Shown here one piece after another: positions 21,001-24,000 of a stretch of DNA of 64,000 nucleotides. The position numbers were made by a program. The stretch lies in the NCBI RefSeq assembly GCF_057098645.1, contig NZ_CM169472.1; one strand, 5' to 3'. The first letter of the stretch is position 1; each line of letters starts with the position of its first letter.

Positions 21001-24000
21001 TTACATAGCCGTTCGCTGCAGATAAAATATGAGGCTTTGAAGCATATAGAAAAAAACATTAATGATAATATTATTTATCATCCGAGTAATAATGCTAATT
21101 TCTATTCTGTAATTGAGTCAATTGATGGTAATGACTTTATATATAACGAAAAACAATCTAAAATATTAGAAATGAAACAGGATCGTGGGGGGAATAGATA
21201 TAGTGCAGTAGATCTTAACTCTTCTAAGTATGGGTATTATGAGAAAGTTGGCGGTGGTTTTTATAGATATATAGAATCCTTTAACCCCATATCTTCAGAG
21301 ACACCAAATAAAATAGTCTACAAGGGGGAATCAGTAGATTTAACTAAGGAGCCAAATTCGGAATTATATTCAGGTAGGTATTCTATAAATAACAAACAGG
21401 TTAATGTTTATTTCTTTCGTGACGCTGATGGTACATTTTATAAATCAGAAGGTCTTCATGGTGGGGGAGTTATTAGATACATAGATAAACCGTATTCTCA
21501 GTTAAGAGAAGGAGATATTGGGTATGATGAGGATTTGTTGGATATATACGATGATTCTCCGGTGCTTGAAGACACGTTGCCTGCTTTATCTTCTGAAATA
21601 GTACCAACTCCAGAACATAGTATTAAACAAATTTATTCGAAAATTAAGGAGGGGCACATAGAACTGTCCGATTCAGACATCATATTGTGTCGCGGCACAA
21701 CCGGTATTCAAGCTGAAAATATCGTTGAATATAAAACTGCTGGAGGGCTTCCTGATTCAAATCCAAATGTAAAAGCACCAGATGAATATATGGCACAACA
21801 GCAGGTACGTATTGGAAGAATATTGCCTGAATACACATCGGATCTTAGCGTTGCTGATCGGTTTAGTCGTGAGCATTATCTAATAGTTGTTAAAGTAAAG
21901 GCAAAATATATCACACGAGGAAGTGTTACAGAGAGTGGTTGGGTTATAGATAAGACCGCACCTGTTGAACCACTTGCGATAATTGATAGAACTTTTGGTA
22001 TGAAGGAAAATATCTCAATGGTAAATGCATCGAAATAGTTTTTTTACAATCTATGTCCTGCCTCCTCTGGTAAAAACGATGCTACATCTTGGAGATGTTG
22101 CACGGCAGTACGGTGTTGACCGATATATAGTGAAGTACACATCGGTCAACGAATTACCATTGTCAGCAATATCATCCTGATAAACTCAGTACTCGTGAGC
22201 CGCTTGATGACGGGCGGAATAGCCCAAAAGGTAAACGATCCGCATGGCAGTCCGTCGGAAAGCTGCTGCTTCATACGACCGCTTAAACCGTCAGTTAGTG
22301 TCAGTATCGCTGAAGATCAGCTTCTTTTGCTGATTTACTCTGTTTTTACCTGCCCTGATGAAATACTCTTTAATCATAACATTGATTATATCGAAAATAT
22401 ATTTTTTGCTATCATTAAGAATATTTATATGTGGAACCGGAGTATTTTGGACGGTAGTCTTTCCACTCTGGTGTATCTAATATTCTTTCTGCTGGTATCT
22501 CTTTGCCATGCAGATAAAATTTTATGTTTTTCATTATTTGGCTGTTGTCTTTATTACGATAAATCCATCTGGATTTGCCCCTATATTTCCAGACATCTGT
22601 TATCACTTAACCCATTACAAGCCCGCTGCCGCAGATATTCCCGTGGCGAGCGATAACCCAGCGCACTATGCGGATGCCATTCGTTATAATGCTCGAACGC
22701 CTCTGCAAGGTTCTTTGCTGCCGTTAACCCGTCTGGTTTGGGCATGATACTGATGTAGTCACGCTTTATCGTTTTCACGAAGCTCTCTGCTATTCCGTTA
22801 CTCTCCGGACTCCGCACCGCCGTGTTCTTCGGTTCAAGTCCCAACATCCGGGCGAACTGGCGTGTTTCATTAGCCCGGTAGCATGAACCATTATCCGTCA
22901 GCCACTCCACTGGAGACGACGGAAGATCGTTGCCGAAGCGGCGTTCCACCGCTCCCAGCATGACGTCCTGTACTGTTTCACTGTTGAAGCCGCCGGTAGT
23001 CACCGCCCAGTGCAGTGCCTCACGATCACAGCAGTCCAGCGCGAACGTGACACGCAGTCTCTCTCCGTTATCACAGCAGAACTCGAACCCGTCAGAGCAC
23101 CATCGCTGATTGCTTTCTTTCACGGCCACTCTGCCTGTATGTGCCCGTTTCGATGGCGGTACAGCAGGTTTTCGCTCAAGCAACAGCGCATTCTGGCGCA
23201 TGATCCGGTAAACACGTTTGGCATTGATCGCAGGCATACCATCAAGTTCTGCCTGTCTGCGAAGCAGCGCCCATACCCGACGATAACCATACGTGGGCAG
23301 CTCTCCGATAACATGGTGTATACGGAGAAGCACATCCGTATCATCAGTGTGACGACTGCGGCGGCCATCCATCCAGTCATCGGTTCGTCTGAGAATGACG
23401 TACAACTGCGCACGCGACACCCGGAGACAACGGCTGACTAAGCTTACTCCCCATCCCCGGGCAATAAGGGCGCGTGCGCTATCCACTTTTTTGCCCGTCC
23501 ATATTCAACGGCTTCTTTGAGGAGTTCATTTTCCATCGTTTTCTTGCCGAGCAGGCGCTGGAGTTCTTTAATCTGCTTCATGGCGGCAGCAAGTTCAGAG
23601 GCAGGAACAACCTGTTCTCCGGCGGCCACAGCAGTAAGACTTCCTTCCTGGTATTGCTTACGCCAGAGAAATAACTGGCTGGCTGCTACACCATGTTGCC
23701 GGGCAACGAGGGAGACCGTCATCCCCGGTTCAAAGCTCTGCTGAACAATTGCGATCTTTTCCTGTGTGGTACGCCGTCTGCGTTTCTCCGGCCCTAAGAC
23801 ATCAATCATCTGTTCTCCAATGACTAGTCTAAAAACTAGTATTAAGACTATCACTTATTTAAGTGATACTGGTTGTCTGGAGATTCAGGGGGCCAGTCTA
23901 GTCATCTACACAACCAACGCCATCGAGTCGCTGAACAGCGTAATCCGGCATGCCATCAAAAAACGCAAGGTGTTCCCGACGGATGACTCAGTGAAAAAGG

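Follow-up and report, generated by a model that had tools for sequence, protein, structure and literature searches.

An inverted repeat downstream of espN as a probable relic of a frameshifting stem-loop in a decayed IS629-like element

A perfect 10-bp inverted repeat with a 16-bp spacer lies downstream of the effector gene espN in a 64,000-nucleotide stretch of DNA (NCBI RefSeq assembly GCF_057098645.1, contig NZ_CM169472.1), which is referred to below as the window. The question raised by this locus is what such a conspicuous symmetry represents in a spacer between effector genes. A sequence-only reading had placed the repeat in a segment (22061-22412) that could be assigned to no gene or insertion sequence (IS), and had proposed an operator, a recombination site or the remnant of another element's terminus. 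The comparisons described here indicate that the repeat is very probably a reshaped relic of stem-loop 2 of an apical-loop/internal-loop (ALIL) pseudoknot, left within a dead IS629-like element.

The inverted repeat and the spacer that holds it

The left arm of the repeat is GTTGACCGAT (22115-22124) and the right arm is its exact reverse complement, ATCGGTCAAC (22141-22150); the 16 nt between them read ATATAGTGAAGTACAC. The repeat described by the sequence-only reading was therefore seen again, and a repeat search extended the pairing to imperfect 15-nt arms (22115-22129 and 22136-22150, 87% complementary) around a 6-nt loop, GTGAAG. Folded as RNA, the 56-nt repeat region gave -17.5 kcal/mol, with z = -3.2 against dinucleotide shuffles. 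Counted over the window, distinct perfect inverted repeats of this type (10-nt arms, spacers of 0-20 nt) number 10, compared with 1.4 +/- 1.2 in composition-matched shuffles. The repeat is real, yet it is unremarkable as a statistic because about one such repeat is expected in the window by chance, and its non-randomness cannot be claimed from these counts alone. Nine further perfect inverted repeats with arms of at least 10 nt occur in the window, including one at 44998-45017, one with 13-nt arms at 48525-48574, and the self-complementary decamer TGTGCGCACA, which is present twice, 13 nt apart, at 33958-33990.

The window is an Escherichia coli O157:H7 prophage effector locus with nleL, espN, espK and potB (Table 1). 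Over the repeat-bearing spacer and its flanks (22039-22600) the sequence shows no difference (100% identity) from E. coli O157:H7 strain PV15-279, where the RefSeq order is nleL, espN, a 'GogB' pseudogene fragment, IS2, a transposase fragment, an nleB fragment, a hypothetical gene, espK and potB. O103:H2 and strain OkiPb01713 have a simpler layout, with convergent espN and espK and the same 376 bp between them; in O103:H2 a single intact espK directly follows the spacer, and O111:H8 has a duplication of the espK 3' end without IS2. In the window, blastn aligns the duplicated piece, 22406-22569, with 24674-24837 in the intact espK, and the two copies share 95.7% identity over 164 nt. The 376-bp spacer (22039-22414), which follows espN, carries no annotation in RefSeq or in any record inspected, and sequence comparison shows it to be a patchwork of gene and IS debris.

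One piece of this debris is a 66-nt espN-like gene fragment, also unannotated in RefSeq, which lies just downstream of the espK-type remnant in the opposite orientation to intact espN. Blastn within the window aligned 22343-22407 with espN at 19838-19774 as an inverted copy (86% identity, E = 2e-16), and tblastn matched the fragment to EspN with E = 2e-9. The peptide encoded on its minus strand is KKYIFDIINVMIKEYFIRAGKN, the counterpart of the EspN residues listed in Table 1. The similarity suggests that a second espN paralogue may formerly have stood at this site.

Table 1. Features around the inverted repeat, in window coordinates.
Feature	Position	Strand	Basis or remark
espN	18637..22038	+	type III secretion effector, 1133 aa
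Decayed IS3-family (IS629/IS1203-like) remnant	~22057..22342	+	blastn and tblastn
orfA stop / orfB start overlap relic	22069..22081	+	GGTAAAAACGATG here, GGAAAAAATGATG in IS629-like elements
Inverted repeat/hairpin	22115..22150	+	repeat search, RNA fold, alignments to IS629-like elements
Terminator-like hairpin and T-run	22314..22336	+	terminator scan; AGATCAGCTTCTTTTGCTGATTT ACTCTGTTTT
espN-like gene fragment	22342..22407	-	22 codons aligned with EspN aa 380-401, 18/22 identical
espK/GogB-type effector 3' remnant, truncated by IS2	22415..22570	-	RefSeq annotation and blastn

A decayed IS3-family element in the spacer

A BLASTN search of the segment, which the sequence-only reading had suggested as a check, matched 22061-22222 and 22238-22304 to transposase genes of the IS629/IS1203/IS3-family type (73-75% identity, E = 3e-15 to 6e-17). 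The segment that had seemed unassignable thus contains an IS3-family remnant in addition to the espN-like fragment. The left edge of the remnant is approximate, given that weak similarity may extend to 22039. The remnant comprises the 3' end of orfA, the former frameshift region and the 5' part of orfB (aa ~1-49 and ~105-140), and alignments to IS629-like elements reveal deletions of 1, 4 and 6 nt as well as an internal loss of ~127 nt. At the relic of the orfA/orfB overlap the orfA frame now reads TGG TAA. Using tblastn, IS629-like OrfB was recovered at aa 26-49 (frame +2, E = 1e-6) and aa 105-126 (frame +1, E = 1e-4), with weak pieces at aa 5-14 (frame +1, E = 3.2) and aa 16-23 (frame +3), and the similarity passes from frame +1 to +3 to +2 over two indels within the hairpin.

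By nucleotide as well as protein comparison, this segment is significantly similar to IS3-family transposase genes, which identifies it as a remnant of that family. It is far from an intact element, with ~90 orfB codons left across three frames with stops; it is flanked by espN on one side and by the espN-like fragment on the other, and has no terminal inverted repeats. In common with IS629/IS1203 of EHEC (IS3 family, IS3 group), the remnant has 73-75% nucleotide identity over ~245 nt and the recognisable OrfB peptides STxYHCQQ..HPDK and RKAxxxDRxNRQ. However, it measures only ~285 bp, whereas the element is roughly 1.3 kb, and it has no DDE domain. Pfam gave no match for the local ORFs or for a frame-corrected OrfB-like peptide. 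Mismatch rates against the IS629-like reference at codon positions 1, 2 and 3 were 0.205, 0.205 and 0.278, and 34 GC-to-AT changes were counted alongside 15 AT-to-GC changes. The near-even distribution over codon positions and the GC-to-AT bias point to long neutral decay rather than to a functional divergent gene. No intact relative nearer than ~75% identity was found by distant blastn in E. coli, plasmid and phage collections, and pattern scans of viral-contig and species-genome collections likewise yielded no nearer intact relative. An IS3-family element of the IS629/IS1203/IS3411 type would thus once have adjoined espN in the prophage effector locus, and nearly all of it would have been lost or have decayed, leaving ~285 bp around the orfA/orfB junction.

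Two further observations concern the break points of the remnant. The ~127-nt gap in orfB (window ~22222-22238; 1690-1816 in the IS629-like reference L003) lies near a private 127-nt deletion in an IS629-like copy on E. coli plasmid CP046678 (L004), and the break points of the two deletions fall within a few nt of each other (1694/1695 in L004). Shared ancestry with this deleted copy was rejected, since the flanks of L004 are 100% identical to undeleted copies elsewhere. The break points showed no microhomology, and nothing unusual was seen when the deleted segment was folded as DNA; deletion may therefore recur at a hotspot here. Separately, the 3' end of the remnant, which closes with GCTGATTTACTCTG (window 22337-22342), is within ~2 nt of a group II intron site located between GCTGATTTTACTTACG and GTGTGCCCGG (position 1811 in L004, 3378 in L018). 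This intron, which carries ltrA, is found within IS629-like transposase genes of more than 1,000 (~1,300) E. coli genomes and interrupts them, and the ancestor of the remnant may have carried that intron, or the agreement may be a coincidence.

Comparison with the ALIL pseudoknot

ALIL-stimulated -1 frameshifting at the orfA/orfB junction gives rise to the OrfAB transposase. In IS3411, as in at least 27 further IS elements, the ALIL pseudoknot is a stimulator of -1 frameshifting (PMC5009743, citing Mazauric et al. 2008). An 'AL1L pseudoknot' feature is marked by PGAP under IS matches, and the Rfam model RF01497 (ALIL), run as a positive control, matched L003, the IS629-like reference, with 121.5 bits over 1474-1590. 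In this reference, the model gives stem-loop 1 as GGCGG-AGUUCGA-CCGCC and, ~45 nt downstream, stem-loop 2 as CGGGG [UCGGAC] CG G UAUGCAG CGAA CUGCAUA U UG CCCCG. The internal loop UCGGAC of stem-loop 2 is the pairing partner of the apical loop of stem-loop 1.

Pairwise and multiple alignments place the window repeat at the position of stem-loop 2, 3' of the orfA/orfB overlap, between the near-identical anchors CAGTACGG and GTCAACG.ATTACCATTGTCAGCA; in the IS629-like copies L003, L004 and L005, stem-loop 2 is flanked by CAGTACGG and GTCAACG.ATTACCA. The exact ancestral stem has to be reconstructed from IS629-like elements, as even the nearest intact relative has only ~73% identity. On this reconstruction, the innermost four pairs of the perfect arms (CGAU/AUCG) are inherited from the middle of the ancestral stem. 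Pairs C7-G4', G8-C3', A9-U2' and U10-A1' stand where the ancestor had C-G, G-U, the G/U bulge pair and U-A. In the upper stem four of seven pairs survive, one of them through a double change from C-G to U-A, and the other three are broken (A.C, A.C and G.G).

The outer part of the stem has a different history. The ancestral outer helix CGGGG/CCCCG is gone, its 3' strand CCCC having been removed by the 4-nt deletion, and the six outer pairs GUUGAC/GUCAAC are new in the window and absent from IS629-like elements. A C-to-U change and the deletion of a single G turned the old internal loop GUCGGAC into GUUGAC, and GUCAAC is unchanged orfB coding sequence (Pro-Ser-Thr codons) that the 4-nt deletion brought beside the stem. 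The former internal loop of the pseudoknot is now base-paired within a continuous stem. Its partner, stem-loop 1, has been destroyed: at the aligned position L003 has GGCGG-AGUUCGA-CCGCC but the window has AUCUA-UGUCCUG-CCUCC, the arms of which are unable to pair. The stem was remodelled after the death of the element, because the 1-nt and 4-nt deletions each break the orfB frame. The middle and part of the upper stem of stem-loop 2 have thus been kept, and its outer pairs were rebuilt by the 1-nt deletion, the 4-nt deletion and one substitution.

Rfam gave no ALIL match at E <= 10 in 21900-22500 or in the 141-nt slice 22030-22170, and a scan of the whole window at the gathering threshold (50 bits for RF01497) was likewise negative for it; only spurious snoRNA/miRNA hairpin matches (E > 5) were returned over the repeat. 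Compared with ALIL, the window has the same position and flanks and a recognisable middle and upper stem-loop 2, but it lacks stem-loop 1, the outer helix and the internal loop, and its orfA frame has acquired a new stop and has no transposase downstream.

Variation, competing explanations and present role

The spacer is present at >=99% identity in 480 of 5,426 complete E. coli genomes, including O157:H7, O103:H2 and O111:H8, and every copy covers the repeat region in full. The 70-nt hairpin region is identical to the window in 207 of these genomes and differs by a single nucleotide in 273. In ATCC 43888 the single difference is A22127G, which converts an A.C mismatch to G-C as in IS629; A at 22127 is carried by the window, O103:H2, O111:H8 and some O157 strains, and the 273 one-nucleotide variants probably carry the same G. 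The fold of the G22127 allele, probably the commoner one in O157, reaches -21.7 kcal/mol (z = -5.1), and the allele is compatible with drift. A pattern scan was also performed with GACCG-N12-24-CGGTCAACGNATTACCA, which requires the CCCC-deleted state with paired GACCG/CGGUC. Six matches were obtained in 2.9 million viral contigs, all from the same prophage locus at >=99.6% identity, and two unrelated matches (an Oscillospiraceae MAG and Rhodococcus) in 100,044 species genomes (one each), which is close to the ~2 expected by chance from a hand estimate. No intact IS with this stem was found in either collection, and the repeat in its present form is, in these scans, specific to this relic.

For six of the ten perfect pairs to arise through three mutations under pure drift is somewhat surprising, and the remaining stability of the hairpin leaves room for retention by selection. 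A perfect stem longer than the original could reflect chance acting on near-complementarity, quasi-palindrome template switching or weak selection. The second of these routes, with one arm serving as template for the other during replication, would, if it occurred, explain the joint origin of the six pairs. It is unlikely that the dead hairpin was actively 'perfected', whether by template switching or by selection for a hairpin that stabilises the espN 3' untranslated region; if it was, A22127G, which restores a G-C pair, would continue the trend.

It is improbable that the repeat is a coincidence, a 10-bp symmetry produced by random decay within an IS gene remnant and independent of the old RNA structure. 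The chance expectation of ~1.4 perfect 10-nt repeats (spacers <=20 nt) in the window fits such an origin, as do the six pairs that IS629-like elements lack and that frame-breaking indels created. However, the repeat falls on the ~40-nt position of ALIL stem-loop 2 out of 64,000 nt, and inheritance accounts for the four inner pairs and for four of the seven in the upper stem, including the pair that changed on both sides. In addition, the old internal loop was already near-complementary to GUCAAC, which indicates that the new pairs were built on an existing hairpin. The sequence-only reading had allowed that the repeat might prove coincidental within a known gene; an interior match, to a transposase gene, was indeed found, but the repeat lies on the former frameshift stem-loop and is not purely coincidental.

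An exapted hairpin, acting as a 3'-exonuclease barrier or terminator in the espN 3' untranslated region and perfected by selection or template switching, is very unlikely. The espN stop codon is 77 nt upstream of the repeat, and therefore a read-through transcript would carry the hairpin in the sense orientation. The hairpin is also stable, well above shuffles, its outer stem has gained six perfect pairs, and the allele probably present in 273 of the 480 genomes restores a G-C pair. Against this, A.C mismatches occur in the upper stem, and the 480 spacer copies, at >=99% identity, vary too little to show constraint. The hairpin resembles a Rho-independent terminator in being a stable stem-loop downstream of a gene, but the bases after the stem, GAATTACCATTG, contain no T/U-run. 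The terminator scan did not call the repeat and called 22314-22336 instead; that hairpin, which lies in the IS remnant close to the boundary with the espN-like fragment, is a better candidate for the espN terminator.

A protein-binding operator, a site-specific recombination site or a mobile-element terminal inverted repeat, each suggested by dyad symmetry alone, is highly improbable, given that the repeat is inside a transposase-gene remnant and not at an IS end, that the nearest promoter-like sites (21983-22011 and 22376-22403) are not within ~100 nt of it, that the 10-mer half-site recurs in the window no more than by chance (4 matches with <=1 mismatch, 4.2 expected), that no regulator or recombinase gene adjoins the repeat apart from the unrelated IS2, and that the 16-nt spacer and 10-nt arms are accounted for by homology to the hairpin. 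The operator and the recombination site put forward by the sequence-only reading thus gain no support. Its suggestion of another element's terminus was right as to a mobile-element remnant, here of the IS3 family, but the repeat belongs to the interior orfA/orfB junction and not to a terminus.

As a relic of stem-loop 2, the hairpin is most likely non-functional, at most a passive structure in the espN 3' untranslated region, because stem-loop 1 is destroyed, the orfA frame ends at TAA and the transposase gene is gone. Nothing at the repeat falls outside known biology, and the finding is an ordinary one. It tidies the annotation of a 376-bp spacer common to the 480 genomes, and agrees with the known picture in which IS insertion and recombination shape prophage effector loci. 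Furthermore, it illustrates that conspicuous inverted repeats in "junk" can be RNA-structure relics of dead mobile elements and are not necessarily regulatory. If exaptation or perfection by template switching proved true, the hairpin would be a minor textbook case rather than a new type of system. Elsewhere in the window, sar RNA (RF00262, phage antisense RNA) was detected at 7146-7212 on the minus strand with 66.7 bits, and is the only Rfam family above its gathering threshold there.
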